A DNA stretch of 63,888 nt, the filler included, from Reclinomonas americana ATCC 50394 (Eukaryota), in the NCBI GenBank assembly GCA_048213135.1. It is 6 parts of 3 records of this genome, joined end to end, with 100 filler letters (N's around TTAATTAATTAA, not from the genome) between each part and the next. Parts side by side here need not be neighbours in the genome. Positions count along the whole stretch, not along the records: positions 1 to 8,033 come from PS015067.1; positions 8,134 to 21,602 come from PS015067.1; positions 21,703 to 35,678 come from PS015068.1; positions 35,779 to 39,991 come from PS015068.1; positions 40,092 to 48,560 come from PS015068.1; positions 48,661 to 63,888 come from PS015069.1. One strand, 5' to 3'. The position numbers and the translations under genes are program-made. Each line of letters begins with the position of its first letter. Positions within the stretch are counted from its first letter, which is position 1. This document shows, one piece after another, positions 189 to 63,853 of the stretch. The notes beneath the pieces were generated by a model that saw only the letters and a list, made by a program, of their open reading frames with translations, searched no databases and was not told where the DNA came from.

Positions 189-2291
189 CTACTTTTGAGC
201 TCTTCTCAGCATGGCCACGGCGTCGTTCATGGCGTCTCTGTGTGCAGACAGCCAAAAAATGAGAAACTTGTGGGTCACCAGAGAGAGGGTGGCTCAACGC
301 ACCTGACGTGCGGCGTACTGGTCGCCGATATGATTCGCACGTGGACCTCTCGCTCCGGATTCTTGTTCAGATGCATGAACTGGTTCTCCAGGTACTGACA
401 CGCTTGTTGTGTCGCATCCGTGCCATCCGCCAGTGCTGCTCACAAATCAGCCATTGAACGCAAAGAATAAAGTCAACGAGGATCGCACAGGCAGACGCAC
501 GTCTGAATTCGGGAAACGCTCGGCCAAAAGCCTCCGGCTCCTGCTCGAGACGCTCACGAAACCTGTCGTACTTGACTAGCAGCAGTAGAACCGGCCTGCA
601 GCAGCCAGAGAGTGAGTCACTTTGGCACGACAAGTCAGGTGTGTGGCGAGAACAAACCGTGCAAACGAGAGATCCTGGTTCACCCACTCGTCGAAGAGTC
701 GCATGCTGTCATCCATGTACGAAGGTCGATCGAACCTATATATGCACACGCCAGTCAGCATGCATCGCACACACACTGATTGTTTTTGTGGCACAGTGCA
801 CGCAACTCGCTCATGGCCACGAGAAACAGAATAACAGTGTCTGCTCGGGCCAGCGTGCTCGACAACTTTGTCCATGAATCGTGCTCCATCCGACTCCCTC
901 CGCTCTCGAGTAATCTGCACACAAGCACAGTCAGTGTGCAGTACCTCACATTTTTTTGGCCTCGCTTCACCAACCTCAACGGCGATCTCCCGCTCAACAA
1001 CGTGGTCTGGCCGGTGCAGCGGTAACATCTCACCATGTCTGCGGAGGTCGGGGCAAACAGTGGATTCGCAATCTTTGCCGCCTGTTGTACGAAGCTGCAG
1101 ATCGAGAAGACAAGGTTGGCGGGGGAAGAGCGGGGTAGCACGAGCAAGGCAGAGGTGGCGCAACTACAGAGTGCCATCGTCGATGCCATATTCGTCGCGT
1201 TGTGCGCGCACCAGCCGCATGGCTGTAACAGACACATGAGAGGGGAACCAAGCATCGCTCTTTGACAGCCACTCGACACGCAACAGCTGTCGGCAAGGAG
1301 TTGCTCGATACCCGTAGCCAGCTCCGTCGAGAGCGGCTCATTCTCGTACACCGCCTGCAGCACTTGTCGTGCTTGCGCCTGGAGGCATCGACGGGTGGCT
1401 GAGCATGAGAGACGCGCAGTCAGGAGCACGGACGCGCAAACACGCACCTCATTGGCGGGGTTGTCAAAGGAGAGCTGCAGCTCTTCATGTGCCTCCAGCA
1501 TTCTCGCGATGCCATGCCTGCAGGCAGAGAGGGTGAGTACAGCTTCTTGAACACAAGTCTCCACTCCAACAACGCACGTCGCTGTACTCCGAATTCTGCA
1601 CAGCGCCAAGACGGGGAGTGAGAAGAGGGCGGGAGGAGAGGTGGGAGAGCAGAAGCGCGAGTCACGAAACAGTTCCACCAACAGCTCCGCCTCCACCGGC
1701 AGCAGACCACCGCCCCACAGCATCTTGGCGTGACTGCACAACGTCGACACTCCGGAGCCAGCAGCGCCTGCATGCAAACGAAAAAATGAGTCGTCACAGG
1801 CGCACGAAGCGCACGGAAACGGGCAAGGGAGGCACACGCACCAAACGCCACCAGGGTTCCCAGCGGCGACTCCCCCTTGCCGTATTCGAACTGTGACGAG
1901 GTCACTCTCCACTCGGTCAGCGCCACCAGCCACCCGCGCCACTCGCTCTCCGACTCAAAGGTCAACCAGTACTCCCGTGGACCTTCATGCAGCACGTCAG
2001 CTCGCGTGAGACCCCCAGCAATCTCTTTCCAACCCACCTTTGTCGAGCCGTTCAGTGTGTATGCACACGGCCCACGGCCGCCCTTTCCGACTGTCTTCGC
2101 ACGTGACTGCGCGGACGGATGACGACGGAATGCAGCCGCGCGTGTCGCCACTCTCCGCCTTGGCAGCGTACCGCAGGTCGGTGAGACGGAGGGTAAAGTA
2201 GCGTCTCCTCCACTAAACCATCATCAGAGTGAGGCGAGCAAGCGAGTGACGACGATGACGACGACAACGACGCGACGCAACCGCTGTCCAT
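189..2291 (-). CDS. PH-like domain fused to a degenerate heterotrimeric G-protein alpha subunit (multi-exon; 5' end uncertain)
   Basis: Spliced translation reads ...REYWLTFESESEWRGWLVAL (PH C-terminal strand/helix), then LVAFGAAGSGVSTLCSHAKMLWGGG, HGIARMLEAHEELQLSFDNPANE, QRDEYGIDDGTLYFVQQAAKIANPLFAPTSADMVRCYRCTG, RLLESGGSRMEHDSW..VILFLVAMSEFD, MDDSMRLFDEWVN, PVLLLLVKYDRF..FPEF, YLENQFMHLNKNPEREVHVRIISATST. This is colinear with the whole G-alpha fold. Stop TAG at 189-191. Confidence 0.85.
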
Positions 2292-2549
2292 TTCTCGCCC
2301 TCCTTGAAGCCCCACCCGGACCGCAGCACTGGATTGCTATCACATAGAGGCGGTGACAGCCCGCTGTGTAGTCACGNNNNNNNNNNNNNNNNNNNNNNNN
2401 NNNNNNNNNNNNNNNNNNNNNNNNNNNNNNNNNNNNNNNNNNNNNNNNNNNNNNNNNNNNNNNNNNNNNNNNNNNNNNNNNNNNNNNNNNNNNNNNNNNN
2501 NNNNNNNNNNNNNNNNNNNNNNNNNNNNNNNNNNNNNNNNNNNNNNNNN

Positions 2550-2879
2550 GGTGTTGGCGATGCCCGCTTTGTCTCCGCGGTGAGTCGTCTTTTCTCTCCC
2601 TCTCTCCATGCGTGTGAGCGTGTCACTGAATCAGTCGCCCCGCAGTCTCGTGATCGTCAGCGCGCTCTGGATGTGCTGCGCGGCGGCTACTTTGCTCTGC
2701 AGTGCCACGAGCCAACCAGGTTTGACAAGTGGATGCGCACACACAGAGGCGAAAGAGCACTCACACTGCTGCGACCACAGGTTATCGCTGTGTCGGCTCA
2801 CAACTTTTGTGCATCGCCACCTGTTGCGTTCTTTGTCTGTCTGCTTGTACGCCGATGACGACGACGACTCACTGGCATG
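2550..2879 (+). other. Unassigned spliced coding fragment between gaps
   Basis: GTGAGT..CAG intron at about 2580-2634 and a second GT..CAG intron at about 2720-2780; reading frame and family not resolved. Confidence 0.3.
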
Positions 2880-3774
2880 NNNNNNNNNNNNNNNNNNNNN
2901 NNNNNNNNNNNNNNNNNNNNNNNNNNNNNNNNNNNNNNNNNNNNNNNNNNNNNNNNNNNNNNNNNNNNNNNNNNNNNNNNNNNNNNNNNNNNNNNNNNNN
3001 NNNNNNNNNNNNNNNNNNNNNNNNNNNNNNNNNNNNNNNNNNNNNNNNNNNNNNNNNNNNNNNNNNNNNNNNNNNNNNNNNNNNNNNNNNNNNNNNNNNN
3101 NNNNNNNNNNNNNNNNNNNNNNNNNNNNNNNNNNNNNNNNNNNNNNNNNNNNNNNNNNNNNNNNNNNNNNNNNNNNNNNNNNNNNNNNNNNNNNNNNNNN
3201 NNNNNNNNNNNNNNNNNNNNNNNNNNNNNNNNNNNNNNNNNNNNNNNNNNNNNNNNNNNNNNNNNNNNNNNNNNNNNNNNNNNNNNNNNNNNNNNNNNNN
3301 NNNNNNNNNNNNNNNNNNNNNNNNNNNNNNNNNNNNNNNNNNNNNNNNNNNNNNNNNNNNNNNNNNNNNNNNNNNNNNNNNNNNNNNNNNNNNNNNNNNN
3401 NNNNNNNNNNNNNNNNNNNNNNNNNNNNNNNNNNNNNNNNNNNNNNNNNNNNNNNNNNNNNNNNNNNNNNNNNNNNNNNNNNNNNNNNNNNNNNNNNNNN
3501 NNNNNNNNNNNNNNNNNNNNNNNNNNNNNNNNNNNNNNNNNNNNNNNNNNNNNNNNNNNNNNNNNNNNNNNNNNNNNNNNNNNNNNNNNNNNNNNNNNNN
3601 NNNNNNNNNNNNNNNNNNNNNNNNNNNNNNNNNNNNNNNNNNNNNNNNNNNNNNNNNNNNNNNNNNNNNNNNNNNNNNNNNNNNNNNNNNNNNNNNNNNN
3701 NNNNNNNNNNNNNNNNNNNNNNNNNNNNNNNNNNNNNNNNNNNNNNNNNNNNNNNNNNNNNNNNNNNNNNNNNA

Positions 3775-5147: not shown

Positions 5148-8033
5148 ATGTCTGCTGGTCTCGTTCCTGGTGGCAAGGACAAGGTGAAAGTNNNNNNNNN
5201 NNNNNNNNNNNGAGAGAGAGGGAGAGAGAGGGGGGGAGGATGGAATGCGCGTATGCCTCTCTCTTACTCTTTGCTTCTCTCTGTGTGTATGTGTGTGTGC
5301 CTCTCACGTCATCTGCCTTGCACACTCTTCTTCTTCTCTGTCTCCCCCCGTCGTGTGTGTGTCTCTCTCTGTCTCTCTCTCTTCATCTCTCTCTCACTGT
5401 CTCTCTCTCTCTTTTCTTCTCCCGCTCTCTGTCTCTCTGCCTCTCTGTCTCTCTCCCTCTCTCACTGTGCATTTCTCACACACACAGAGGATGAGGACGA
5501 GCAGCAGTCGTCATTTGCGTCGTCGCGCGAGAGGAGAATGGCGGGAGGAGTGATTATCAGCACGGGATCGTCTGCGACAACGACCTCCGCCACATTGTCT
5601 TCTTCGTCGACACAGCCGACGATTCAACGCAAGTTGTGTGAGAAAGAGAGAGACTGAGACTCAACCTTGTCCCTCCTCTCTCTCGCCCCTCACTCGCCCT
5701 GCAATCCCCCCTGTTGCTCACTAACTTACTGACACTGCACCAAGCATTCATTCTCCCTCGCCTGCAATCCCCCTGTCGTCCTCCGCTCTCCCCTTTTCTC
5801 TCTTTCTCTCTTCACCCTCTCTCTCTCTCTCTCTCTCTCTCTNNNNNNNNNNNNNNNNNNNNNNNNNNNNNNNNNNNNNNNNNNNNNNNNNNNNNNNNNN
5901 NNNNNNNNNNNNNNNNNNNNNNNNNNNNNNNNNNNNNNNNNNNNNNNNNNNNNNNNNNNNNNNNNNNNNNNNNNNNNNNNNNNNNNNNNNNNNNNNNNNN
6001 NNNNNNNNNNNNNNNNNNNNNNNNNNNNNNNNNNNNNNNNNNNNNNNNNNNNNNNNNNNNNNNNNNNNNNNNNNNNNNNNNNNNNNNNNNNNNNNNNNNN
6101 NNNNNNNNNNNNNNNNNNNNNNNNNNNNNNNNNNNNNNNNNNNNNNNNNNNNNNNNNNNNNNNNNNNNNNNNNNNNNNNNNNNNNNNNNNNNNNNNNNNN
6201 NNNNNNNNNNNNNNNNNNNNNNNNNNNNNNNNNNNNNNNNNNNNNNNNNNNNNNNNNNNNNNNNNNNNNNNNNNNNNNNNNNNNNNNNNNNNNNNNNNNN
6301 NNNNNNNNNNNNNNNNNNNNNNNNNNNNNNNNNNNNNNNNNNNNNNNNNNNNNNNNNNNNNNNNNNNNNNNNNNNNNNNNNNNNNNNNNNNNNNNNNNNN
6401 NNNNNNNNNNNNNNNCTCCTAACCTTAACCTTACGTACGACTACGTCGCCAACGACGACTACTACTATTCCTCCTCCTCGTCATACCCTCCTCGTCTCCT
6501 CCTCTCCTTCCTTCTCTTCTTCTCTTCTCCTACCTCTCTCTCTCTCTCTCTCTCTCTCGCCGCCTCACTCGCCCCTCTTTCGTCCCTGCAATCACCCCTG
6601 TTGCTCACTAACTTACTGACCGTGCACACGCAAACATTCATTCTCCCTCGCCTGCAGTCCCCCTGTCGTCCTCCGCTCTCTCCACCCTCTCTCTCTCTCC
6701 ACCCTCCCCTCTCACGCCCCTCTCACGCCCCTACAGTCCCCCCCTGTCACACTCTCACTTGCTTACCTGCACACACAAGCATTCATTCTCCCTCGCCTGC
6801 ATTTCTCCCCACCCTCCCCCTTCTCTCTTTCTCTCTCCACCCTCCCCTCTCTCTGTCTTACCCCTGACTCTCCCTGTAATCCCCCCTGTTGCTCACTAAC
6901 CTGCTGACCCTTCACCTAAGCATTCATTCTCCCTCACCTGCAATCCTCCTGTCGTTCTCCAGTGAACTCACCTTCTCTCTTTCTCTCTCCACCTTCCCCT
7001 CTCTCTGTCTCACCCCCTCACACACTCTCTCACTCTCTCTTTCGCCCTCTCACGTCCCCCTTCTCCCTTCCCCCCTTCTCCCCCTTCCCTCTTTTCCCCT
7101 CACCCTCTCACCCTCCCTTCTCCCCCATGCAGAGAGGACCCACGTCTTGCGCGTCTTCGCGATGTGCACGTGGATGCCGACAAGGCAGCGCAGTCGCATC
7201 GCCGACGCATTCATGAGGCGGAGATTGTCAGTGCTGCCTCTGCGGCGGCGGCGGCAGCGGAGAGCAAGAAAGCCGCGGCGGAGGATGAGGCGCAGCCAAT
7301 GGCCATGTCGGATGAGGAGGAGGGCGGTGGCGCGCGAGTGTTGCGTTTCTTTTTTTTTTTTTTTGGAGAAGCAGGTGTTGTCAGGTGAGGCAACTCACAC
7401 GAATGATTCGGTGTGTAGCGTGGCCAGACACGAGGTATCGTCCGAGGACGAAGAGGAGATTCAAGATCGTCGCCGTCGTGCGCTCGCCAAGTTGCGCCGT
7501 CCCTCCTCTCCCGGCTACCCCCTTTTTCCCTTCCCCCTCTCACCTTCTCCGCCACCCGCTGCAGACGACAGGCCATGGTGGCGAAGGAGGAGGAGGAGCT
7601 CATGGCGCGTGAGGAGGAAGAGGAGGAGGAGACCGACGAGGGTGACGATGAATCGAGCGAGTACGAGACGGAGACTGACGAGGAGGAGGAGACGGGATTC
7701 GGTCTGGCGCGCATGATGAAGCCACAGTTTGTGTCCAAGTCGGAGCGCGACACCATTCTCGAGCGTGAGCGACGTGAGGAGGAGGACAAGAAGCTGGAGG
7801 AGGAGCGTCTGAAGCGGCTAGAGGAGCGCAAGAAGGAGACGCACCAGATGCTGGTGCAGGAGATTCGGAAAGAGGAGGTTTGTCTCGCCACCTCCCCTCC
7901 TCCAATGCGCACAACTCATCACTTCATCACACGTGCTCAGGAGGCCGCCAAGAAGGGTGAATTCAGCTCCGACGAGGACATGCCCGACACGTCGGATGAC
8001 GAGAACAACGAGGAGGAGTTCAATGCGTGGAAG
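5148..8033 (+). CDS. MFAP1: Microfibrillar-associated protein 1 (spliceosomal B-complex factor, Spp381-like), partial
   Basis: EDPRLARL, RRRIHEAEIV, acidic tract SSEYETETDEEEE, MMKPQFVSKSERDTI, DMPDTSDDENNEEEFNAWK; truncated at the linker. Confidence 0.9.
5690..6960 (+). repeat. Intronic minisatellite plus CT microsatellite inside MFAP1
   Basis: The unit CTGCAATCCCCCTGTTGCTCACTAAC...AAGCATTCATTCTCCCTCGCCTGCA recurs at about 5699, 6586 and 6874, with a partial copy at about 6745. Confidence 0.8.
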
Positions 8034-9632: not shown

Positions 9633-12600
9633 ATGGACGATCCTGTGCTCGAACAAGCCTATGAGCACGTCAGCCGTGACTGGCTGTGTGCGCCTGCATA
9701 GTTGCGACAACACGTCACTCTCTCTGCTCTCTCTCTGTTCTCTCTTTGCTCACACTCACACACTGCTCACTGTGCAGCTGGGAACCAGTGCTGGCAGAGC
9801 TCGTGTCATTCATCGAACGTCGTCAGGAGTTGCGTGAGTTGTCTTTTCTGATTGCGCGTGTGTCAAGTTTTTCGCGCCATCGCCCTCTCTCTTCTCAACT
9901 TGCCCCTCCTCCACACACACAGAGGCGAAGTGATTGATTACATTCCGATTCTGCGTGCACTGGATCGTGTCGCGGATGCGTTCAAGAGCGGCGTGGATGT
10001 CAGTGGTGTGTGGCATCGTGCGGTGCCACTGCTCATGCGTCTCTTTGGGTACCAGCAGTGGGTGTTCAAGCAGTTTGGCGCCTTTGCCATGATGCACGTC
10101 TTCAAGAGTTTCGACTGTAGACACATACACATGTTCTTATTTACCTCTTGCGCTCATCGGTGGTGCAGCATGCGATCGTGAGACCACTGTGGAGATCTTG
10201 CATCAGCGGTTCCCCGAGATGGAGCACAACTTTCTCGAGTTGCTGCTCAGTGGCGTGTCGTCGCCCAAGCGCGAAGTGCGTGATGCTGTCGGGCAGGTGA
10301 GGATGCCAAGGACTGGGAGTCGTCGCTTCTAGGTTGTTGTTGTTGTTCATGGATCGATGCAGTGCTTTGGGACGCTGGCTGCGGTGTTGGATATGGAGTT
10401 ACTCGACGAGATCTGGCAGCAACTGGAACGTGGTGCGCGTGTGCGTGGCGACGATGTGGAGGATGCACTGGAGGGACACATGATTAGCATCGGGTACTTG
10501 TTGGCCAAGTGCCGAGGAGTGACGCCCGAGGTGTTCAGGTCGGTTTGCGGCTCCCGCATTCATCATGCCTTCATCACTTGCTTATCGTGCGTGGCAGCGC
10601 TCTGCTCTCTGCGGTCATTGACTGCACATCGTACAAGGGCAATCCCACCCTCTCGTACTACGTGCGACAGTACGCCGTGCGTGCTTTGGTGCGCATCCTG
10701 CAGACGCGCGGATCAGTCGAGCCGGCTCTGTGGACGGATGCGTTGCGAACGGCGGTGGCCGTCGACATTGTCAGCGAGCGCGTGAACGACGACAACATTG
10801 ACGTGCGCAAGCACAACGCTCGTCTTTTGTGCGCCTTCACCAAGGCGTCGGGTGATGCGCCGGACGCGGTCGCGCGTCGCATGGTGGCCGAGCGTGCCAA
10901 GTCCGAGCGATGGGAGCACGACCACGGTATTGCGTATGCACTCTTGCTGTTGGTGCAAGATCGGCAACTGGCACGTACCGCTCCGTCTGCGTCAGTTTTG
11001 AGCGCTCCAGCCACGCTGATCTCACGCCACGTGTGTGCAGGCCAGTCAGCTGTCTCGCCCGGTGGTCGTTGAAATCTTCGCCGCCATGCTGGGCGATGTG
11101 ATCGATGGCTTCAAGCGGTATGTGGACGCCACTGTGCACAATCTGCGGCGCCACCACCGATTCACATCTTCTTCGTGCGCAGGCAAGGCGGTACAGCAGC
11201 GGCCTCGGCCGTCCTGGCGGCAGTCAACTTGTTCATCTCACAGTGTGCGGCGCCGGCACCATCCTCGTCGTCGTCTGGATCGTCGGTGGACGCACTGGTC
11301 GGCGCCATGCAATCACTCTCCGTCAAGGTACCTTCGCTTTGTGTGTGTCTGCATGCGCGCGCGCTCGTCAGTTGAGTCAGTCAATCCTCGGCGCAGGACG
11401 ATGTCCGTGAGCTGTTCGACACGTATGTCATGCCGCTGTTGATGTGCGCGCTGACAAGCACGGACCCGTCCCTGCTGGATGCCGGTGGTTCCGGCCTGTA
11501 TCTGCTGCAAACACAACTGCCGGCATTTATTCAGGTGCCTGGCCGTGAACTTGCAAAGCAGTCCTGCCAGACGTCGTTAACCGCGCCTGCTGTCTCGTTG
11601 CCAGGCATACCTGACGCCGCTGCTGAGCCGCCTGCACAAGAACGCGTTCCACGCCTCGCTGCCGATTCGTGACAGTGCTCTGCGCAACTGGCGCCAGGCT
11701 GCCAAGCTCGCCGGGTTCGTGTCATGCGCCTGCAGGCACAGGGAGAGAGAGAATGGTTGACGGTGCTAACCGACCGGATACGCACGCAGTGTGTCTGAGC
11801 AGGAGCTGTTGCAGTCGCTGTCCTTGGAGATTCTCGGATTCCTGCTCAGCGAGGGCAACAAGGACAATGTTGAATTCCGTGAAATGGTCTACAAGGGTGA
11901 GTGTTGGCGCGCGTGTCACTCGCTCAATGTTTCGCCGCTCTCATCCCATCCATTCGTCGCGCGTCAGATGCGGCCGCGCTCTTCTCGCAGTCCTCTCCTC
12001 CCGCCGAGTTCACCTCTGAAGAATCGGCGCAGCCACACATTCTGCTCATGCTGCAGGCAGGCATCACCGATACGTTGCGTCGCTCACCCGCACTCCACAT
12101 TTGCCCAATGTGTGTGCCTCTCACACTAACTTCCGTGAGCAGGCGTGGTGGTGCCTCAGCCGAGTACGTGCAGGCTGCGGCCACCACGGCCTTTGCCAAG
12201 TATCTCCGGCTGTTGTCTCGTGTGCATTCGAGTGACTGGAGGCACTCGTCTGTTGCGTTTCTCTGCAAAAGGTGGCGATGTGAGTGCCATTTCATTTCCT
12301 CCTCACCGCTAGTGTCCGCCCACCCACAGCAACAAGTCGCCGTCGATCTCTTCACCAACCTTGCGCTCTCCACGTGGGACATGGTGTCTGTTGCCAGTCT
12401 GGAGGTGCGTGTGCACACGTTTGTGCGACGAGGGAGTCTTCCGACTCACTCTATCGGAAAACTCAGATTGCCGAGGCACTGTGTGCGGGCTTTTGGGACA
12501 CTCTGATTGCACAAAACCTGCTGGGCTCCATTCTTGTTCCGCTGGCTCGACTGGCATTCCACGACTTGGACGCTGTGCGATACCCGGCCATGAGTGTGTA

Positions 12601-25699: not shown

Positions 25700-25767
<68 letters not shown>

Positions 25768-42856: not shown

Positions 42857-43124
42857 CCTTCACACACAGAAAGAGATAACAAAGACGAAGAAAAACAACT
42901 CCTCTCTCACTTACACGCGCACACACACACACACAAAGAAAGGAGAGAGTGTGAGAGACACGCACGCACACACACACGGTCTGCTGCTCACAGAGAACGA
43001 GAGAGAGTGTGTGTCTGTGTGAACGCGCGCAGTGAATGCAATTGCGAAACGGCTGCGTCGGTTGGCCGGATCGGACGGTGGAATGCGAGTGTGTAAAAAC
43101 TGTGTGTGTGTGTGTGTGTGAGAG

Positions 43125-46670: not shown

Positions 46671-46677
46671 ATCTGCG

Positions 46678-49529: not shown

Positions 49530-50655
49530 GGCTGGACGAGGCCATTGAGAAGGGCTACCGCCGTGCTGCCGAGTTGGAACCTGCAAATGACGAGTACAGG
49601 AAGCGATTGGACGAGGCGCTGGCTCGGCGAGATGCACAGCGAGCGGTGAGTGTGGCACACCCTGCCTGTCATCATCATCCTCTTTCTTTTCTTTCTTGTC
49701 TTCATCTCTCTCTCCGCACGCGCCGATATACCTATTACCCCACGACTGTTTACATTTACCCGTCAGCTGTGGTGGCAAGAATTCTGCGCCAAATTGAATC
49801 ACATGTCACTGTGTGCAGTCCTCGTGCACCGTTTACTCGGTGTGCAGGCCGCTTGTATCCTTATTCTACATGATCGTAGCGTGGTGCACAGTTGACACAC
49901 ATGTTTTCCGCTCCTCCCTTCTCCCGCTCACCCCTGCACTCTTCATGTCGTGAGGGCATTCGATGCGTTGCTGACTGCGCGTGTCTATCGATTGTTGCAG
50001 GCACCACCGCCACGTCAAGCGCCGGGTGCCGGTGGCATGCCTGGTGGTCTGGACCTGGGTGCCATGATGGGTCAGCTGTTGCGTCGAAGTGTTGGGAAGT
50101 CCTCATCGACTGGTGTTGTCCATCTTCGCTTACCACTGCTGTGTTGCAGTTCCGGCATGTTTGGTGGTGCTCGAGGTGGCGCGGCTCCACCGGGTGGCGC
50201 CCCGCCAGCTGCCGGTGCCGGTGGACTTGGCGGTCTGGAGGGCCTTGTACCTCCGTCGCTGATGGAGTCGATGGCGAACGACCCAGAGTTGCAGTCGCTG
50301 ATGACCGACCCGCGTTTTGTGGCCATTATGGAGCAGGTGCAGTCGGGCGGCCCCATGGCCATCATGTCGTTGATGCAGTTGCGTCTCGCTCGTATTTTTG
50401 TTCATATGAAGGTTGGGTTTGTCTGCTCATCCCCGCCCGCGTGGCAGATCACCGGATCCATTCGTGCGTGACGTTGTCAATCGCATCGCCTCGCGTGTCA
50501 TGGGCAGCATGGGTGGTCTTGGCGGCCTCGGTGGCTTGCTCAGCAGCCTCGGTGGTATGGGTGGCTTTGGTGGTGGTGGTGGTGGCGGCGGTGGCCCACC
50601 TCCCTCGGCCGGTGGTGGCGGTGCCGGAACTGGTGGATCAACAATGTATTCGTGA
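49530..50655 (+). CDS. SGT/SGTA-like co-chaperone, TPR3 plus Gly/Met-rich STI1(DP)-like C-terminus
   Basis: LDEAIEKGYRRAAELEPANDEY, MANDPELQSLMTDPRF, Gly-rich tail; joins in frame to the reverse complement of 48661-49092. Confidence 0.85.
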
Positions 50656-50687: not shown

Positions 50688-52983
50688 CTACGTTCCAATG
50701 CCCTTGACGACAACCTTGTCGAAAATGTCGACAAAGCGCTCTGTTGCATGATAGCGACACCGCAGCTCCTCGTATCTCTCCAAGTCGTAGGCCTGCGCAA
50801 ACTCCTCTCTGCGTTCTCTTCGTGTTAGAGAGAGACTATATGCATCGGTGGTGTTGTCGTGTTGCAAGCACCGCACCTGGTGTAGTACGAGTGGCTGTAC
50901 AGTGCCTTGTGGCCACCGACCTCGGTACACAGGGCCTCCATCTGCCGGTTCACCAGGCGGAAGTCGGTGACACGGGCTGCCGGACCAAAATTGCCGTAGA
51001 TGCCAATGTTGACGTGGAAGTCCTCGTTGCGGGGACCCATGGAGAAGATTTTTCTGCTGCTCTCCATACGGCGTGCGGGACACAGCCACAGTGGATAGAT
51101 GTCGAGATCGGCGTGGCAAAAGAGGAGGCACTTGCGCAGTGCGCTCATTGGCACACACATGTCTTGCACCATCTGTGGGCGCCGCACCCGATGAGATGCG
51201 CAGTAGAAGCATTGTTGGCAGTGTAGATTGTCACCGACCGCAGTCTTTTCGCGTTCCTCGTCACTCCAGTGCATACCAATCTTGAACTGCGCGACCGGCA
51301 CATGTCAGTACACGCGAGAGTGCCAACAACGCAGTGACAACACACCATGGTTCGCGATTCGAGCATCCAACCCCATAGAGCGCGCATCGCCAACGACTCG
51401 GCCGACTGCAGCATGAAGAAGCAGCCGCGATCGTAGCGGAACAAATAGTCCATGAGCGACGTGCTGAGAGTGAAGCGACAGAGAACGTGACCCAGCAGGC
51501 TGTCGGGTGACGGCGGTGGTGAACCCCACTCGATTTCATCCTCATCGCTATCTTCCTCGTCATCGTGTCGTCGTCGCGAACACTTGTCGTCAATCATGCG
51601 CTCCAGTTCCTCAAAGAAGAGCCGATCGCGCCACCGCAGCAAGCGAACATATGGACCACCTGCACGGGTGTGAGGCAGGCTGCGAATGCATACAAATGAG
51701 GGTGCCGACGCAACTCGCATGCTCGGACATGATCGCTTCCACCACTGCCGATCGATCGGGATCAAAGACCACCGCGTCGATAAAGTCGAGCACTGGTGGA
51801 TCGCGACCGTCATTAAGCGTGGCGTTGCATACTCGATCGAGGTGCGAGACGCAGTCGGCGCGGTGCGAGTACACGGTCACTTGCATGACCACGTGTCTGC
51901 AAGCGCCATGAACAAGTATGCCGAGTGGAAGCACACACACAGACAACGACGCAACGGCAACACTCGCATGCACTGCAGCTTGGCCGACACCACCAGCGCC
52001 AAACTGCCAAACGAGCCAAACAGTCCGTAGAACAGATCGGCGTGCTGCTGTCGCGAGGCCGTCACCACCGTGCCATCGCCGAGCACCAACTCCATCTCCA
52101 GCACAACGTCCTCAAACAAACCTGCACGTTCACAGACACATGTCAGCTGTGAGTTGTTCCTCGAAAAAGCAGCAGTGCTTTTCGCACCATGTCGGAACGA
52201 TGAGCTCTCAATGCCCAGTCCCTGAATCGCGCCGCCCACTGTGCGCGTGCGTCAGTGAGAACTGCACCAGCAGCACCAACAGCAGACAAACACAGCACCG
52301 GTGATATTCTGGAACTCGGGCACCACCGCCGGCACCATACCGTACTCATCAGCCAGTGCCTCGCACAGATCGCGCATGGTGACTGCGGCCTCCACTACCA
52401 CCGTGCAGTCTGCTCGTAACCACTGTGAGTGCCACGACTGCTTCACAGCGCCCTCACACACAAACAACACACCGTCGACATTGACATTGCGAATGCGCGA
52501 CAGCGACGACAAGTCGATTGGCACCGTGCCGGCCTTGTATGTGTGCGTGCGTGTCGAGTGTGCATCGCCCACTTTGCGCAGCACCGAGATTCTCTTGTGC
52601 TGCTCGGCGGCCAGCAGCACGCGCTGGCGAATCCTGTCACTGACAACATGCGTCTCCGCCTCGGAGAGGTCCACCACTGGCGGCACTCTCCTCCGCTGCC
52701 ACCACGCAATGCCGCACAACACACAGAACCAGACGAGTGCCACCACAAGCACCGTGGTGACCGGCAGCAGCGCCAGCGTGCACAGGAACACTGTGGAGGT
52801 GGTGGGCGGGTCAAACACTCGGCCTCAAACACGCTATTTGCGGCCGCAACACACACCTGTCACTGGTGTGGCACACACGCGGCTCGCCGTGTACCATGCG
52901 GCAGCAATGGGAGCGGCGGCCGCTGCACAGGTCAGGGCCAGCCACTTGGGGTTGTGCCGGATCATGAGCCACACGTACTCCAT
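50688..52983 (-). CDS. Delta(24)-sterol reductase (DHCR24/DWF1)-like FAD oxidoreductase
   Basis: VVVEAAVTM, PAVVPEFQNITVGGAIQGLGIESSSFRHGLF, DLFYGLFGSFGSL, DYLFRYDRG, VQDMCVP, IYPLWLCP, GHKALYSHSY. Confidence 0.9.
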
Positions 52984-55805: not shown

Positions 55806-58196
55806 ATGGCGTCGAGTGCGTTGCGGGAGGCGTTTGCGCGGCGTGCGCTGGAGGTGTCGGGCGCGACCAGTGAGCGCCTGTGTGACATGATGCGCGAGTT
55901 TGATGTGCAGTCGACTGAGGACATGGCAACAAAGTTTGAGGTGAGTGAGTGTGTGTGCTTGTCTCTCTCTGTCTCACAGTCTGCTCACCACGTCCTCGCA
56001 CAGGCATTCGTCATGAACGCCGGCTGCTCTGAGATCACCGACGATGTCATTGACCGCTTCAACAAATTCATGATCAAGCAGGCAAAGAAGCCGGCGAGAA
56101 AGAGCGCACCCGCACGCAAGCCCGTCTCGGCCACCCTCGGCGGTACCTTCACCAAGGAGACCATTCAGTCGTTGCGTCACTCTCCCACCGCACACAGCAC
56201 AGACACAGACAGATGAACTGACACTTGCTGAGCAATGCAGAATGCCATCGCGCATTGGGTCCTCGGTTGGCGAGGTGAGAGTGTGTGTGTGGCTCTTTCT
56301 CTTTCTCTGTCTCTCTGCGCATTGACACCCCTCTGCTCGCGCGTGTGTGCGGCCAGGCCATGGAGATTGACAGTTCGCCGCAACAGGGCCGCTCGTCGCG
56401 TCGCGCCTCGTCGCCGTTTCGTGGTGCGTCGACGCCCAAGCCGATGAAGTTGCACACGCCACTGCGGTCGCCTATCAACCAGAATCGTGGCAAGGTGCGG
56501 GGATTCGCGCGCGTGGCTCGTGCCTCCCGCGTCTGCGTTGCCTCCTCTTATTGTTGTTGTTGCGCAGGTGCATCTGGTGCACAACGAGGGACTGCAGGGG
56601 TCGCCGGGGGAGCACGGTCGGTCGTCGTCGCTGGTGATTCGCGTGCTGAATGCACTGCCGAGGGTACGCTTCTACACACCCGCGTGCGCTTCTGCGTGTG
56701 TTGTCCTCATCGCTGTGTGGATTAGGAGTTCCGCTACATGCGTGAACCGCTGACGCGGCGTGCGGACCACCTCAAGCACCGTCTCGCTTCGCTGTCGTCG
56801 CTGATTCTCGCGCACAATGCCCTCGCCGAGGAGCGTGCGCCGATTCGTTGCATCCGGCAAGAGGCGGTGGTGTTTTGCGGTCGACTGCTGCCAGACACGG
56901 AGGACGGCAAGTGGAATGCCGAGTCGATTCTGATTGAGGGCGATCTGGAGGACTCGGATGTTTCGTGACACAGAGGTTGCGCGTGCCTCCTCCTCTGTGT
57001 TCTCACTGCTCGACAAAACGCAGGGCGAGCGAGCGCGCCTGATTGTGCGCGACTTGCCGTGGTTTGTCTTCTTCCCGGGCCAAGTGGTGGCCGTGCGCGG
57101 CATGAACATTGACGGGCAGACGATTCGTGCGAGCCAGCTGTTCCTGGTGCGCCATGTCGCGCTTCTTTTATCACTCTGCTTGCGTGCGTCTCACTCACTT
57201 TTTCACTTCTCAGCCACCACCGCCAGAACCCATGTCCAATCCCGCCTTGGTGCCCGAAGCACCAGTGTCGTTCCTGGTGGCCGCCGGTCCGTTCCCCAGC
57301 GAGGACGATTTGCGCGACGTGGTCGACGCGGCCATTACACAGCGCGTCGACTTTTTGCTGCTGTTGGGTCCGTTTGTCGACATTGACAAGGACTCGCTGG
57401 ACGACGATGTGCTGTTCGAGGAGCGCTTCGAGTGGCTCGTCAAGGAATTCTGCGTGGAGCGACTGGAGCGGGCGGCGGCGGCCGAGGACGCCGTTGTTCC
57501 GCCACCGAAGCTGGTGCTGATGCCGTCGCTCAAGGACGCACACCACGATTTTGTGTACCCGCAGCCGCCATTCGCCACCAATTTCCGTGTCACGGCCGAT
57601 GTGGTGAGTGTGCACTCATCCATGTACACTGCGGCAAACAAAGAAGAACTCACGAGCTCACGCCCCCCTTTTGTGTTGCCCAGTCGTCGGTGACCTGCGT
57701 GCCGAATCCGTCGGTCCTCGAGGTGCGAGGCCTGACGGTGGCGGCCACGTCGGTGGACGTGCTGATGAACTTGAGTGCGGAGGGCATCTCGTTCGGCTCC
57801 GACCCAGCCTCGCTCATGGACGCGGCCGGCGATCGCATCTCGTCGCTGCTGCGTCACGGCCTGCTGCGTCAGCGCTCACTCTACCCGCTCTTCCCACCAT
57901 CGGTGCAAGTGCCACTCGACTTTACGTACGCGCAGCACGTGGAGATGCCGCGGCGGCCCGACATTCTGGTGACGCCCTCCCGTCTGACCCAGTTTGTTAA
58001 GGTCGTCGACGGCTGCGTGTGCGTCAATCCACGCTACGTGTCCACCGGCCGCTCGGTGGCTCGTGTCGACGCCTTCCCACCAGCACCACCGTCGCTGTCA
58101 CAGGCGGAGTCATCGTCGCCGGCGGCTGGGCCGTCAAGAGGGCCGCGTGTGTCGCCAGTGGCCGACCGCGTGCGCGTGGAAATCATTCAATTATAA
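55806..58196 (+). CDS. POLA2: DNA polymerase alpha subunit B
   Basis: FRYMRE, CGRL..DGKWNAESILIEG, FFPGQVVAVRGMN, VAAGPF, LLLGPFVD, LMPSLKDAHHDFVYPQPPF, RQRSLYPLFPP, PDILVTPS..CVNP. Confidence 0.96.
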
Positions 58197-58357: not shown

Positions 58358-59986
58358 TTAGTTGGTGATGGTGAAGGTGGTGGTCTTCTCGTCGAAGATG
58401 CGGCTGTGCGGGTGCTGTGTGTAGGGAAGGGAAAAGTGAGCGGTCATATACTCCACGGGGAGAAAATGAAGCGTGACGCAACGCCAGAACCGCACTCGCC
58501 CTCGCAGATGGCGCAGTCGACTGCATAGAGAATGGAGGGAGTGAGAAGACAAGGAGGAGGTGAGAAGCGCTCTGCACACACGCACCCTTGTACACGCCGG
58601 GGACGAACGGAGTGTCCTCCGTCGGCTCGGTCGACAGGGTGAAGGTGGCAGTGTAGTTGCCGGGCTTGAACTCGGGGACGAGGTCGCCGCCGCCGACCGG
58701 GAAGCCGACCGGGGGAATCACTGCGAGAAGGGGAGAACACACGAAATCAGAAACGTGCTGATGGGCATGCCGCCTTGCACACGCCAAACAACTCACCCTC
58801 GCAGTCGATCTCGCCAGTGCCAGCCGGGTTGAAGCTGTGATGACAATTCATGAAGTCGAGTGAGGAACACTTCTTCCGACAATGTGCGACGAGCGGGGGA
58901 ATGAAGAGACGCAACACGCCGAAGAGGAGGTTAATGTCGAACTTCTGACCGGTGCGGCCAGACGGCGGCTGCACACTCAGGCTGCTGATCTGAGCGCACT
59001 GGCCAGTGCAGTCATTGTCCGGGCACACGTGGATCAGCTGGCAGTAGTAGATCGGGTCGAGGTCGGCCTTCTCAATCGCCTTGATGAACTCGGTAATGCC
59101 CACGTAGTCGCACTGCATGACAACAGAGATCAGCAAACACACTGTCCGGCTATGCCTGAGGGAGAGGGGGCAAGAGACGCACCAGCAGGTTGCAGACGAC
59201 CTGCTCGAGCTCCTTTGGAAGCTGGCCGCAGAGGTCAGAGCACTGCACACCGAAAACAAAACAAGAAAAATGAGTGTCAAGAAAAGCGGGGAGCTCGATC
59301 CAACTCGCAGCACAAGAACGCAACTCCACCGACGACACCTAGAGACGGCAAAGAGAACGAGAGACAAGAGTAAGTGTATCGGCCCTCATGCGGACATGGA
59401 GAAATCAGACATGATGCCGCGCACCAGCATTCTGTAAAGCAGGCAGAGAGCAAGAGGTGAGACTCTGCTGGCCACACGAGACGGCACACACACAAGAGAG
59501 AGGAACTCACCAGGATGATGTTCAACAGCTCATTGATGCTCTCGCTGTTAAGAAAAGAACACACAATGAGCGAGGAGTGGAGAGGAGAGAGGGGCAACAG
59601 TGGGCAGTTCAACTCACCCCATGAAGTTGACGCAGAGCGGGCACATGTCACTGGAGAGCGCGACGGAGGGAAAAGCGGAACAATAAGTTATGCGGCCTTG
59701 CACAAAAACACTCTCTTTCTCTCACTTGACGCAACATGCCCACGGGGCTGCGAGCCGGCGCAGAGGCCGACACCGACGACGCCTGCTCACACACACACAC
59801 ACGCAAGTGAGCAACACAAGAGGAGAGAGAGAGAGTGGTAAAAGTGTGTCATGGCCATGACATTTCTCACCCCCACACGACCCCCCCCACCCCACACACA
59901 CACATCACAACACGAGAAAACACAGCGCGACTCACCACCAGCAGAGCGCACACAAGCGCGACAGTCAGCAGGACCAACTTGTTCAT
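58358..59986 (-). CDS. Countin-like secreted saposin-B domain protein
   Basis: Signal peptide MNKLVLLTVALVCALLV; CPLCVNFM..SINELLNIIL..CSDLCGQLP..VCNLLCDYVGITEFIKAIEKADLDPIYYCQLIHVC; GTGE; AICEGECGS..HPHS. Confidence 0.9.
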
Positions 59987-60080: not shown

Positions 60081-62533
60081 ATGCCGGCGCTGGCGTTCCG
60101 CCTCGCGCACCGCCTGGGCGTGAGCCTAACCTTTCTCAAGCTCACCAGTCTCATCTTCGGCTGCCTCGTCATGGCCGTCGCCGGTGAGATTGCGCCAAAA
60201 AAGGCAACGGAGCCCCGACGAACTCATTGCTCTCTTCCCTCTCTTCCCCCAGGCAATCTCTACTGCTACTCGGTGTATGCACCACAGCTGAAGGAGCACT
60301 TGCACTACGATCAGACAGAGGCGGCGTTGGTTTCGTCAGTCGGCGACTGGGGGTGAGTGGAGATCAGGCGCGCATCTCCTCTGCGGAAGTGCAGCAGTCG
60401 CCTCATTGATTTGACAACAACGCACAGGCTGTACTTGGCCATCACCACTGGCACTCTGTATCACCACCTTGGCCCGCATCTCACGCACTTTGTGGGCGGA
60501 ACATGCGCGTTTCTTGGGTACGCCGACGCGAAAAGTTCTCACATCTCTCTCTGACTCTCTGACTCTCTGTCTCAAAGGTACTTTCTGATGTACTGTGTGA
60601 CGCAAGGATGGTTCTCGGCTCCGCCACTGGTGCTGGGCATCTTCATGGCGATTGCCGGGCAGGGATGCTCGTGCGCGTTTGTGGCCGCCTTGCTCGGCAA
60701 CGAGTGCAATTTTGATCAGAAGCATCGCGGAAAGGTGATCTCTCCCTCTCTCTCCTCCCCCTTCTCGCTCTGTGTGTGGGCACCTCATGCAGATCGCGCA
60801 GATCACCGGTCTGCTGGTGTCGTTCTTTGGGCTCAGCGCCGCCATCATGACCACGTTTCACTCGATGGATGTGTTCAACGAGGTCACACCGGGATCGTTG
60901 CGCTCTTGCTCGCTCGCTTCTGCTTGTAGTGTGTGTGCACACTGTGCTCATGATCGTCGTGGTGTGAGGCAGCCTCTCCAACTTTTTGTTGTTCCTTGCC
61001 GTGTTTCCCGGCGTCACCATCCTCCTCGGCGGCATCATGGTGAATCGGCTGTCTGATATTCCGCCTCGCGCTCCGGAGGCCAACAGCGACGATGAGGGCG
61101 AGGGCGAGCGGCGAAAACTGCTCACCAATGCGGAACGTGCGTGCACCTTTTGTTTCTTGCACGTACGCACACTCTTCTGACACCTGCTGCAGCGGCCGAT
61201 GTGGAGTCGGGTGCGACAGCACCGGCCATCAAGTCCCACGGCGCCACAATGAGCGGTGCGTCTTTTCGTTGTTTCTCTTTCCCCTAGTGGCGCGTGCGCG
61301 TGGATCTCACAAGCCACTGTCGTGCAGCCGATGATTTCAAAAAGGGAGCAGACGGCCAGGCGCCGTCGGCACTTGGCATCACCGAGTCACTGCCAGAGAT
61401 CGACATTGGCGGCTGGGCCATTTTCCGCGACATTCGCATGTACCTGCTGTTCTTCTCTGTGTTGTTGATCGCGTCGGTGCGTGCACTCGTTTCGATACAC
61501 GGTGCTCTGTGTGTGTGGCGGTGCTTGACTTGTGCGCTTGTGCAGCCGGGTTTGTGCTGGATCAACAACCTTGGCTTTGTGGTACGTGTGCGTGCGCTCT
61601 TTCTGAGTTGTGCTCCGTGTGCTGACTCTTTCCTGCCATCTGTCTGCATGCTCCAGACTGCGAGTCAGTACATGAGCTCGGTGAGTGAGGTCGGTTGGCA
61701 AAAAGGGGCGATGGAGCACGATGCTCACCAAACAGGTGCTGGCAGGAATTCAAGGACCAGCTGGTGATTGTCTTGTCCATCAGCAACGCCGCTGGCCGAC
61801 TGCTGTGGGGCTTCCTCAGCGACGTCATGTTGCGTTGCTGCCCTTTCATGTGCGCGCAGTGGTCGATTTTGACGCCTCGCGCAGCGTCCACCGCGTTCCA
61901 CGCTTGTACTTTTTGGCGCTGTCGGGCGCCGGCATGTTCATCGGCTACCTCACCGTGTACTTTGTGGTCAACTCGGCCTCGGTCGTGGCCGTCACCATTC
62001 TTGTTGGCCTCTGCTACGGTGGTGCGTGTTCACCCCAAAGAGAGAGACAGAGATGTAATTGAGTGCCTCACACTCGTACCGACAGGCACCTTTGCCATCT
62101 TCCCGTGCGTGACCCGTGAGATGTTTGGCAAGCGCCAGTATGGCATCAACTTTGGTCTGATGGCCACCGCACCCGGCTTCGGCATCACCGTTCTCGGCGT
62201 GATGACCGGCAAAATCTACGACGAGCATGTTGCGCTTCGACGTCGTCGTCCTCACTGCTGCAGACTGCTGCTATTAAACTGCGCATACAGATTGTCGACA
62301 ATGACGAAACATGCTTCGGCACTGACTGCTTCCAGCTGTCGTTCCTGGTCCTGCTGTTCGTGGCGCTGGCCGGCGTCGGCGTGGCGCTCATTTTGCACTG
62401 GCGCAACAAGATCTGGATGCGGAAGCGCAGTCAACAGGCGGCCTTTGAGGCGCCGGCCGTAATCACCTCGGTGCCAGCCGCGGTAAAAACAGGCAGCACA
62501 GCCGCCGAGGGCGATTATGTAGCCGTGAAGTAG
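60081..62533 (+). CDS. Nodulin-like/NFD4/Mch1-type MFS transporter (alternative start at 60033)
   Basis: GNLYCYSVYAPQLK, NFDQKHRGKITGLLVSFFGLSAAI, SISNAAGRLLWGFLSD, GLCYGGTFA..EMFGKRQYGINFG, GKIYD..CFGTDCF. Confidence 0.9.
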
Positions 62534-62574
62534 TAAAAAAGTCCCGAAGAGAATAGTGTCACCGACACTCGCGA

Positions 62575-63003
62575 ATGATGATGAGAAGAGCGTCGATTGT
62601 GGGCCTCCTCTTCTTCCTCGTCCTTCTCCTCGTCGCATGCGCCACACCATCGCACAGTGCGCAGGACGAGCTGGAGGAGAGACGCGCCGTGGACGACGCT
62701 GATCTTGAGGAGTTTGTCGCCGCACTCGCCGCACTCCACACACCACCCGTGTCGGGCTTTGAGACGAGCACACACCAGGAGAAGCAGGAGAACGAGGAGA
62801 AGCAGGAGGTGGCAGCGTCGACCGATTCGCAAGAAGAGGAAGCGCTGAGTGACTCATCGTGGGGCTGGTACGGTCACGGCCACGTGCGTCGCACCGATGA
62901 CATTACGGTGGAGCAGCAGCGTGAGTTGCGGAGGCGCAAGAGGCATCGCAAGCAGCGAAAGGAGAAGAAGATGAGGGAGAAGATGGAGAAGAAGCCGCGA
63001 TGA
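62575..63003 (+). CDS. Small intronless secreted protein (signal peptide, acidic region, basic tail)
   Basis: 142-aa ORF with hydrophobic N-terminus SIVGLLFFLVLLLVACA, Glu-rich middle and Arg/Lys-rich end. Confidence 0.65.
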   Translation: MMMRRASIVGLLFFLVLLLVACATPSHSAQDELEERRAVDDADLEEFVAALAALHTPPVSGFETSTHQEKQENEEKQEVAASTDSQEEEALSDSSWGWYGHGHVRRTDDITVEQQRELRRRKRHRKQRKEKKMREKMEKKPR

Positions 63004-63448
63004 GAATGAACAATGTGTGAAGTGTTGTGTTGTGTTGCGTGTAGAGGTGGATGCTTGGGGCAGCGCGCTTATAGCTGTGTGTCTCTGAGGGCTGCGGGCG
63101 GTTGCAACCGTTGCATGTGCATTTTTTTTGACTTCCGAGTGCGGCGTGTCTCCCGCTCGTAATCTTGCTGCTTTATAACGTACTTGCTGCGACTAATTGT
63201 AACGCGCGCGCTTGGCCTTGCACGAGCGCGACGAGCACGCATTGACCTCGACGTCGACGACTTCCAACCCGTGCAAGCTAGGAAAAATCGCCTGCTTGAT
63301 GCTCGAAGCATGTACGTGCACTCTTGCTCCCGTCTGCTGTGTTTTTGCGCTTGAGGAAGGCGACTCGCCACATGCGACGTTACGATGAAGGACGCGGATG
63401 CATTGACATTGACCCCCGCCCGGTCTTATCACATTTTTTATCATCGCC

Positions 63449-63853
63449 ATGAGCCGTGCGATCCTCCTCGTCGCCGTGTTGTGCGCCCTCATCGTTGCGT
63501 TCTCGTTCTCATACTCTCTTTACCTCCTCTACTTCTGTTTTTGAGAGGAAGGGTTGTTCCGACTGTGCGTGTGTGTGCGTGTTCTTGTCCAGTAAATGCG
63601 CGTGCCCTCTTTTTCTCCTCTTCTGCCACTCACCGCATGTGCCCCACAACCACACAGGTGGCCTCCCAGGCCTTCTCGATCACCAAGGTCAGCGCGACCC
63701 CCATCCGCAACCTCGACATGTTGCGCCATGTTGTGATGTTCAGCAAGCGACTCTCTCTTTTTTTCCTCACCTCTCTCTCCCTCTCTCGCTCTCTCCTCAC
63801 AGCGACCTGTGCCCGACCTGCGTGTCGTTCGCCTCGAGCTCGATCAATGAGTG
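63449..63853 (+). CDS. Second countin-like saposin protein, N-terminal exons (runs off the window)
   Basis: MSRAILLVAVLCALI|VASQAFSITK..NLDI|DLCPTCVSFASSSINE parallels CPLCVNFM..SINE of the 58358-59986 gene. Confidence 0.75.

Follow-up and report, generated by a model that had tools for sequence, protein, structure and literature searches.

Two classes of predicted 5' splice site, displaced by one base, in nuclear DNA of Reclinomonas americana

The window analyzed here is a stretch of 63,888 bases from Reclinomonas americana ATCC 50394 (GenBank assembly GCA_048213135.1), with a G+C content of 0.43-0.59 and 5,770 N, and the subject is a class of predicted 5' splice sites (donors), typified by GTTGCG, in which the donor motif lies one base further into the intron than usual. 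The DNA is nuclear and comes from a flagellated, intron-rich eukaryote. Pfam scans covered 250 open frames (≥110 residues) and 145 predicted exons. The genes identified were a divergent G-alpha-like protein, MFAP1, two MAPEG genes, tandem Laminin_G_3 genes, two NADPH-oxidase genes, an ATP-grasp/SET gene, a CFAP65/hydin-like ciliary protein, Ku70, a TPR/STI1 protein, a deoxynucleoside kinase and DNA polymerase alpha subunit B.

As far as sequence, statistics and homology can show, this window has two real donor classes. With the exon-intron boundary written as a slash, about half of the donors are g/GTGcGT (general form G/GTNNGT), and about a quarter to 30% are w/GTTGCGT (general form H/GTTNNGT). 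The second class was proposed in a sequence-only reading of the window, which named 20 donors (16 GTTGCG, 4 GTTTCG) as following exons that do not end in G and described them as an abundant class with a motif shifted by +1. The hexamer was present at all 20 coordinates, the base before it was A, C or T in 20/20, and a CAG or TAG lay 55-85 nucleotides (nt) downstream of every one (20/20).

All introns reported here are gene-model predictions made from the DNA sequence with purpose-written models. A Viterbi gene finder was used with codon usage, acceptor, branch and length terms, and its knowledge of donors was limited to the bare GT dinucleotide ('donor-blind'), a design chosen to avoid circular reasoning about the donor motif. 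Codon usage was seeded from Pfam-matched stretches, and the finder's own output served to train the models for acceptor, branch and length; a GT start and an AG end were imposed. The first pass, run without signals, was noisy and gave 54 introns. In an expectation-maximization run with an intron penalty of 5, the count escalated to 820 introns, and this run was rejected as over-calling. A run using a donor mixture that included exon positions was circular for the -1 base and was excluded from any claim about it. With a calibrated penalty, the donor-blind finder gave 193 introns, their lengths tightly concentrated at 60-80 nt. A second intron set (n = 200) was obtained with a donor model built on intron bases only. 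Donors were assigned to classes by rule: canonical donors were GTNNG, and shifted donors were GTTNNG with +5 not G.

The donor-blind set held 91 canonical, 45 shifted and 57 other donors (n = 193), and the intron-only donor set 108, 58 and 34 (n = 200), so that the shifted share of predicted donors was 23% (45/193) to 29% (58/200). The 58 shifted introns are listed below with one canonical comparison intron. Lower-case letters are exon bases; 'listed' denotes a site named by the sequence-only reading, 'donor-blind' an intron found with the bare GT, and 'model-only' one found only with the intron-base donor model. Counts of better alternatives refer to the homology test described further on.

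736..806, minus strand: shifted intron, ga/GTTGCGT, listed, donor-blind
915..998, minus strand: shifted intron, tt/GTTGAGC, donor-blind
1095..1164, minus strand: shifted intron, ta/GTTGCGC, listed, donor-blind
1223..1284, minus strand: shifted intron, ct/GTTGCGT, listed, donor-blind
1596..1670, minus strand: shifted intron, ct/GTTTCGT, listed, model-only
7340..7418, plus strand: shifted intron, gt/GTTGCGT, donor-blind
7491..7564, plus strand: shifted intron, aa/GTTGCGC, listed, donor-blind
9701..9777, plus strand: shifted intron, ta/GTTGCGA, model-only
9829..9922, plus strand: shifted intron, ga/GTTGCGT, model-only
10108..10168, plus strand: shifted intron, ga/GTTTCGA, donor-blind
12074..12142, plus strand: shifted intron, ac/GTTGCGT, listed, donor-blind
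12252..12329, plus strand: shifted intron, ct/GTTGCGT, model-only
13262..13325, plus strand: shifted intron, ca/GTTGCGC, donor-blind
13858..13925, plus strand: shifted intron, ac/GTTGAGT, donor-blind
14833..14898, plus strand: shifted intron, gc/GTTTTGT, donor-blind
14998..15074, plus strand: shifted intron, tg/GTTGCGT, one of 3 with G at -1, model-only
15448..15514, plus strand: shifted intron in a MAPEG gene, GAA/GTTGCGT, listed; paralog alignment gapless across RPAAPE/D
16371..16438, plus strand: canonical comparison intron in the paralogous MAPEG gene, same position, GAG/GTGAGTC
17840..17951, minus strand: shifted intron, ga/GTTTCGT, model-only
19347..19414, minus strand: shifted intron, ca/GTTGCGT; paralog differs by 4-nt and 1-nt indels, donor kept
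20456..20525, minus strand: shifted intron, ca/GTTGCGT; identical copy of 23407-23476
22300..22362, minus strand: shifted intron, ca/GTTGCGT; paralog of 19347-19414
23407..23476, minus strand: shifted intron, ca/GTTGCGT; paralog of 20456-20525
26440..26501, plus strand: shifted intron, aa/GTTTCGC, model-only
27764..27839, plus strand: shifted intron, tt/GTTGCGT, donor-blind
28026..28097, plus strand: shifted intron, ga/GTTGCGT, donor-blind
28907..28975, plus strand: shifted intron, ga/GTTTCGT, donor-blind
29578..29656, plus strand: shifted intron in the NADPH-oxidase C-terminal gene, gt/GTTGCGT, listed; 9/1235 alternatives better, sole GT-AG solution
29815..29885, plus strand: shifted intron, cc/GTTGCGT; 63/946 alternatives better, best of 3 GT-AG solutions
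30845..30912, minus strand: shifted intron, ca/GTTCCGT; poor homology test, 454/1200 alternatives better
31593..31666, minus strand: shifted intron, aa/GTTCAGC; 227/1162 alternatives better, best of 4 GT-AG solutions
31698..31777, minus strand: shifted intron in an NADPH-oxidase gene, at/GTTGCGT; 0/503 alternatives better
31800..31870, minus strand: shifted intron, gg/GTTGCGT, G at -1; 3/568 alternatives better, sole GT-AG solution
32217..32361, minus strand: shifted intron (uncertain model), ct/GTTGCGT; 508/933 alternatives better
32382..32593, minus strand: shifted intron (uncertain model), gt/GTTGCGT; 511/950 alternatives better
32653..32755, minus strand: shifted intron, gg/GTTCCGT; 2/767 alternatives better
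34775..34841, plus strand: shifted intron, tt/GTTGCGT, listed, donor-blind
41112..41186, minus strand: shifted intron, at/GTTGAGT, donor-blind
42984..43050, minus strand: shifted intron, cc/GTTTCGC, model-only
43155..43220, plus strand: shifted intron, at/GTTGCGA, listed, donor-blind
43922..43992, plus strand: shifted intron, ca/GTTGTGT, donor-blind
44923..44992, plus strand: shifted intron in the Ku70 gene, gt/GTTGCGT, listed, donor-blind
46139..46205, plus strand: shifted intron, at/GTTTCGT, listed, donor-blind
46320..46381, plus strand: shifted intron, aa/GTTTCGT, listed, donor-blind
46799..46869, plus strand: shifted intron, ca/GTTGTGT, donor-blind
50078..50149, plus strand: shifted intron, ct/GTTGCGT, listed, donor-blind
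50378..50447, plus strand: shifted intron, ca/GTTGCGT, listed, donor-blind
51660..51714, minus strand: shifted intron, ga/GTTGCGT, donor-blind
51897..51955, minus strand: shifted intron, cc/GTTGCGT, model-only
56171..56240, plus strand: shifted intron in the DNA polymerase alpha subunit B gene, tc/GTTGCGT, listed; outside the homolog-alignable region
56960..57023, plus strand: shifted intron, at/GTTTCGT, listed; 0/319 alternatives better; Pfam DPOA2_OB positions 2-65 matched by the upstream exon and 68-107 by the downstream exon, starting at its residue 1
58415..58482, minus strand: shifted intron, gc/GTTGCGT, donor-blind
58835..58915, minus strand: shifted intron, gt/GTTGCGT, donor-blind
59651..59735, minus strand: shifted intron, at/GTTGCGT, donor-blind
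60897..60972, plus strand: shifted intron, tc/GTTGCGC, donor-blind
61829..61884, plus strand: shifted intron, at/GTTGCGT, listed, donor-blind
62229..62290, plus strand: shifted intron, at/GTTGCGC, listed, donor-blind
63494..63547, plus strand: shifted intron (weak model, ends GAG), tc/GTTGCGT, model-only
63720..63802, plus strand: shifted intron, at/GTTGCGC, listed, model-only

GTTGCG occurred 84 times on the two strands together, compared with 63.8 +/- 6.7 in shuffled sequence, and none of 100 shuffles reached 84. It made up 84 of the 7952 GT sites of the window (1.06%) and 30 of the 193 donor-blind donors (15.5%; binomial p = 1e-25). With those 30 sites it was the commonest donor-blind hexamer, ahead of GTGCGT (22) and GTGAGT (13), which bears out the claimed abundance of the class. 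Among the 84 copies, 40 were predicted donors, 9 lay in exons and 7 in introns in the sense direction, 18 were antisense to genes and 10 were outside the models. GTTTCG was not enriched as a plain hexamer (24 copies vs 32.1 +/- 5.5 in shuffles), and 9 of its 24 copies served as predicted donors. The donor-blind finder recovered 18 of the 20 listed sites as donors (missed: 63720 on the plus strand and 1670 on the minus strand), and all 20 were recovered with the intron-only donor model.

The two classes were also separated when donors were left unlabelled. An unsupervised mixture of two position weight matrices plus noise, fitted to the 193 donor-blind sites from -4 to +10, returned g/GTGcGT (weight 0.46) and a/t before GTTGCGT (weight 0.25), and going from one motif to two raised the log-likelihood from -3007.6 to -2816.7. 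In the donor-blind set, the base before GTTGCG was T in 13, A in 11, C in 5 and G in 1, and before GTTTCG it was A in 3 and T in 2. G stood at -1 in 68/91 canonical and 2/45 shifted donors (Fisher p = 7e-16); with the intron-only donor model, the figures were 85/108 and 3/58 (A 23, T 22, C 10; p = 1.4e-21). The remaining common donors mostly followed G, as had been stated (GTGCG 21/28, GTGAG 17/18, GTTCG 5/5, donor-blind). A check proposed with the original claim, that donors with T at +3 should carry G at +6 rather than +5, was answered in its favor: 58 of 79 such donors did so, with A 23, T 22, C 10 and G 3 at -1, and the 13 with G at +5 had G at -1 in 11 cases.

A simpler account would have no special class at all, with degenerate donors and a free-floating intronic TGCG(T) element producing the hexamer by chance. 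Strings like TGCGT did recur in some introns, and the GCGT core was also found further in, at +6 (3 donors) and +7 (2 donors). Against this, the core lay at +3 (22) or +4 (24) and never at +5, as expected if GTGCG and GTTGCG hold the same core displaced by exactly 1 nt; the spacer before the core at +4 was T in 26/26; and the -1 base depended on the offset (p = 7e-16). The restriction of offsets to +3 and +4, together with the T spacer, indicates that the displaced core is not free-floating, and this account, which had been named in advance as one that would overturn the class, is scarcely credible. Further shifted donors ran parallel to canonical ones, with GTTGAGT, GTTGTGT and GTTTCGT corresponding to GTGAGT, GTGTGT and GTTCGT.

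In other respects the shifted introns were ordinary. Median length was 70 nt for shifted and 69 nt for canonical introns, and both classes shared a CAG acceptor profile; all 58 shifted introns were GT...AG, with 55 ending in CAG, 2 in TAG and 1 in GAG. A branch-like YTNAY motif was found near the 3' end of 47/58 shifted and 98/108 canonical introns at a median distance of 19 nt in both, and the top motifs were identical (CTCAC, CTGAC, CTCAT). The branch-like motif was mostly CTCAC or CTCAT, with C and not a purine before the presumed branch A (55/98 canonical, 25/47 shifted). Both classes occurred within one gene in 16 of 27 intron-bearing gene models. Phase 2 was commoner in shifted (23/58) than in canonical introns (24/108; p = 0.04), which fits a class that lets exons end on a base other than G. 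By reading, the intron sequences had no similarity beyond the donor that would point to an introner-like origin; no formal test was applied.

Predicted junctions were compared with homologs by moving the donor and the acceptor at most 30 nt (18 nt in the case of DNA polymerase alpha B), allowing any dinucleotide, keeping the frame-preserving, stop-free variants, and scoring the spliced products against a hidden Markov model (HMM) of fetched homologs. Seven shifted donors had junction support by homology or paralogy. Five (31777, 31870, 29578, 29815 and 56960) passed the homolog-HMM test, a sixth (15448) was backed by a paralog alignment, and protein continuity otherwise rests on coding potential. 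Exon-level Pfam matches across the 145 exons gave one clean junction check, at 56960, plus a few approximate ones, most exons being too short.

The MAPEG paralogs at 15243-15982 (plus strand) and 16175-16846 (plus strand) were 47% identical and carried an intron at the same codon boundary, RPAAPE/D. The donors of the pair were GAA/GTTGCGT and GAG/GTGAGT, so that a synonymous codon change accompanies the change of class; this suggests that coding constraint and donor class may co-evolve. The tandem Laminin_G_3 copies at 19273-20634 (minus strand) and 22221-23585 (minus strand) were 98% identical, and substitutions and frame-breaking indels clustered in the predicted introns. In the GTTGCG intron with donors at 19414 and 22362, a 4-nt and a 1-nt indel lay inside the intron and the donor was unchanged. 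Because of this paralogy, two pairs among the 58 shifted introns are not independent. The 25-nt exon just upstream of the 19414/22362 donor was also strongly diverged.

These comparisons bear on whether the class could be an artefact of gene modeling, with the GTTGCG sites unused in splicing and frames restored in some other way. Training of the finder used the window itself, an early low-penalty run had over-called 820 introns, and some predicted introns failed the homology test. The enrichment found without any donor knowledge (p = 1e-25), the seven donors backed by homology or paralogs, and the agreement of shifted with canonical introns in length, branch and acceptor all speak for real donors, and we consider an artefact very improbable.

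Several gene models deserve separate comment. The window contains five joints, at 8034-8133, 21603-21702, 35679-35778, 39992-40091 and 48561-48660, each consisting of 44 N, TTAATTAATTAA and 44 N; TTAATTAATTAA is a six-frame stop linker of the type used for concatenating contigs. The window is therefore a chain of at least 6 contigs, and adjacency across the linkers is artificial. The G-alpha-like gene at 189-2291 (minus strand) had about 13 introns, a predicted P-loop GAAGSGVST and weak Pfam G-alpha matches, and a homolog search with its largest exon returned no relatives, the protein being divergent. The two NADPH-oxidase genes (SH3-domain type) lie on opposite strands, at 30749-32836 (minus) and 29465-30001 (plus), with masked stretches between them; the plus-strand piece matched the C-terminal 130 residues of homologs only. 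The closest NADPH-oxidase relatives found had 42-47% identity over the full length. A metagenome scan with an NADPH-oxidase exon gave 13 loci with a top identity of 56%; the two best were intron-less genes from AT-richer organisms and so provided no relative for testing donor conservation. The model at 43125-48616 (plus strand), in which Ku70 (Ku_N, Ku core, and SAP ending near 46658) is joined to downstream exons, probably reflects the gene finder fusing two genes. Searches of solved structures with the two exons flanking 44923 gave 0 matches and 1 chance match. For the 104-residue exon 51346-51657 (minus strand) of a FAD_binding_4 gene, no relative was found at E <= 0.001 among 1.84 billion representative proteins; the gene model may be wrong there, or the sequence lineage-specific.

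The displaced motif raises the question of how such a donor would be read. Written as RNA, the shifted donor is the canonical string G-G-U-G-C-G-U with its second G changed to U, giving G-U-U-G-C-G-U. The sole GU, and hence the cut, would then lie one base further upstream in the shared string. The first RNA to read the donor, presumably U1 small nuclear RNA (snRNA) with its 5' end, would pair alike with both strings. Relative to the cut, its register would be shifted by +1: intron G+1 would replace exon G-1, U+2 would be a tolerated mismatch, and positions +3 to +7 of the shifted donor would take the places of canonical +2 to +6. The later spliceosome would cut at GU, and the last exon base would thereby be freed from having to be G.

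Exon-side base preferences were compared between the classes. At shifted -1, measured against NGTT in coding sequence at matched codon position, G was seen 3 times vs 14.7 expected (p = 1e-4), and A or T 45 times vs 26.9 expected (p = 2e-6). Observed/expected ratios at shifted -2 were 1.62 for A, 1.08 for C, 0.95 for G and 0.58 for T, and at canonical -3 they were 1.81, 0.88, 0.95 and 0.56 in the same order; for A, shifted -1 had a 2.13-fold and canonical -2 a 2.32-fold enrichment. The exon-side preferences thus move one base along with the motif, with an imperfect match at shifted -1.

The same U1 could also reach the displaced core through a bulge, with +1G paired to C8, +2U to A7, one U of +2/+3 bulged out and GCGU paired one step on. 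All 58 shifted donors have consecutive U at +2 and +3, by class definition; complementary positions to a human-type U1 were marginally more numerous in the bulged than in the shifted register (6.24 vs 6.12); and a register of this kind has been validated in human at 54-68 of 201,541 sites, according to Table 3 of Tan et al. (2016, PMC4856993). A bulge would, however, leave -1 facing C9, where G should stay favored, as it is in canonical donors (85/108). In shifted donors G at -1 was found in 3/58, with 14.7 expected, and this depletion favors the shifted over the bulged register. The one-base move of the exon preferences is likewise not predicted by a bulge, which we regard as quite unlikely.

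On balance, the U1 5' end, presumably, reads both kinds of donor, and does so in a register shifted by +1 in the second kind; we hold this to be somewhat probable. We infer both U1 as the reader and a shifted rather than bulged register from the sequence. The shifted register, with its putative reader, is partly supported and gives the best fit: exon-side preferences are displaced and G at -1 is depleted, and pairing to a human-type U1 is predicted to be weak.

A number of results weigh against this account or against parts of it. In the intron-only donor set, 34/200 donors fell in neither class, and G was likewise uncommon (5/44) before GTTGCG copies that were not donors. Donors 32593, 32361 and 30912 did poorly in the homology test, with over a third or about half of the alternatives scoring better, and these models are doubtful. 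The match of shifted -1 with canonical -2 was imperfect for G (0.20 vs 1.19) and T (1.37 vs 0.69), and G at canonical +7 and T at +8 had no counterpart at shifted +8/+9. Pairing was computed with nearest-neighbor energies and the 11-base 5' end that Tan et al. (2016, PMC4856993) print for human U1, from which the host U1 may differ; mean minimum free energy (MFE) of the duplex was -6.4 kcal/mol for canonical donors, -1.4 for shifted donors and -2.7 for 600 exonic decoy GTs, so that shifted donors are predicted to pair worse than decoys with this end. Intron +1G paired with C9 in only 9/58 of the shifted MFE structures. Counts of complementary positions, at 4.05 in the canonical, 6.12 in the shifted and 6.24 in the bulged register, did not separate the last two. 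Lastly, C at shifted +5 (51/58) was stricter than C at canonical +4 (50/108; p = 6e-8); a textbook U1 would favor A there, and C is a mismatch with it.

An Rfam scan of the window gave no U1, U6 or U5 gene and nothing at gathering scores, with two sub-threshold microRNA-like matches at E <= 1. The donors themselves hold some information on a reader. At canonical +4 the preference was C>T>A>G (50, 30, 23 and 5 of 108), and at +3 it was G over A (79 vs 10), the order expected opposite G and C and not opposite two pseudouridines. When 16 hypothetical U1 5' ends varied at positions 5-6 were compared, the G-C version AUACGCACCUG separated predicted donors from the 600 decoys best (-3.24 kcal/mol vs -1.92 for the human-type end).

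The reader may accordingly depart from the textbook form, either as a single U1 with an altered 5' end (e.g. G and C at positions 5 and 6) or as a second U1 variant or a protein that reads GUUGCGU contiguously. The base order at canonical +3 and +4, the C at shifted +5 in 51/58, and the superiority of AUACGCACCUG over a human-type end that puts shifted donors below decoys all fit such a reader. It is deduced from donor statistics, though, and shifted donors come out just slightly above decoys even with the best of the hypothetical ends (-6.2 vs -5.5); the two classes share genes and have identical 3' halves, so that nothing points to a separate spliceosome. Across eukaryotes, to our knowledge, the 5' end of U1 is almost invariant, and GC-rich algae with a standard U1 also favor GTGCG. 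Taken together, we judge a non-textbook reader unlikely.

A bolder and more tentative form of the proposal is that one seven-base string, G-(G or U)-U-G-C-G-U, might be read in a single register by a U1 in which G and C replace the two pseudouridines, or by an added U1 variant, with the place of GU setting the cut; this is possible but doubtful.

Comparison with known systems puts the class closest to the 5' splice sites with a shifted register that Roca and Krainer (2009) described in human, as summarized in Tan et al. (2016, PMC4856993). The two share a consensus displaced by one base, U at +2/+3, G at +6 and not +5, no G at -1, and a cut at GU. They differ in core (GCGU here, AAGU in human), in the very weak predicted pairing to textbook U1 here, and in frequency: 23-29% of predicted donors here, compared with 1.5% of 201,541 human sites for all validated noncanonical registers, by the summary figures of Tan et al. 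(2016, PMC4856993). The shifted class is far more frequent than anything described for noncanonical registers. The human bulge +2/+3 sites also have GUU followed by a displaced core, but keep -1 opposite C9, whereas G at -1 is depleted here. Two human 5' splice-site classes have been set apart by U5 loop 1 vs the U6 ACAGA box, as outlined in Open Biol (2025, PMC11732430). As in the present case, one consensus hides two classes and the exon-end G trades off with intron positions; unlike it, those classes, as outlined there, share one register, whereas here the motif is displaced by 1 base and an intron G is conserved in both classes.

U12-type introns provide another case of a second, sequence-distinct donor class in one genome. 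In that type, donor and branch site each follow a long consensus of their own. Here both classes have branch-like motif, acceptor and length in common, and the shifted donor differs from the major donor by one base; with the donor GTTGCGT and a major-class branch-like motif and acceptor, the shifted introns do not match the U12 type. A literature text search for GTTGCG/GUUGCG with splicing terms returned no description of such a donor class, motifs given only in figures not being searchable, and literature searches on shifted registers and on two splice-site classes returned mammalian work only.

Such donors are very rare in human, and shifted and bulged U1 registers are known only as rare mammalian exceptions. 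A genome in which at least a quarter of the donors are displaced, with an either/or rule on the last exon base, would be a natural experiment that bears on how U1, U6 and U5 share the finding and cutting of the 5' splice site, and its donor statistics make a specific prediction about the 5' end of the organism's U1. In this genome, many exon ends will be misplaced by gene finders that rely on one donor matrix. If the seven-base string were indeed read in one register only, the cleavage site would be uncoupled from the register in over a quarter of introns, and exons might end in any base. Such a lineage would be the first to have a noncanonical U1 register as a major, selected splice-site class.

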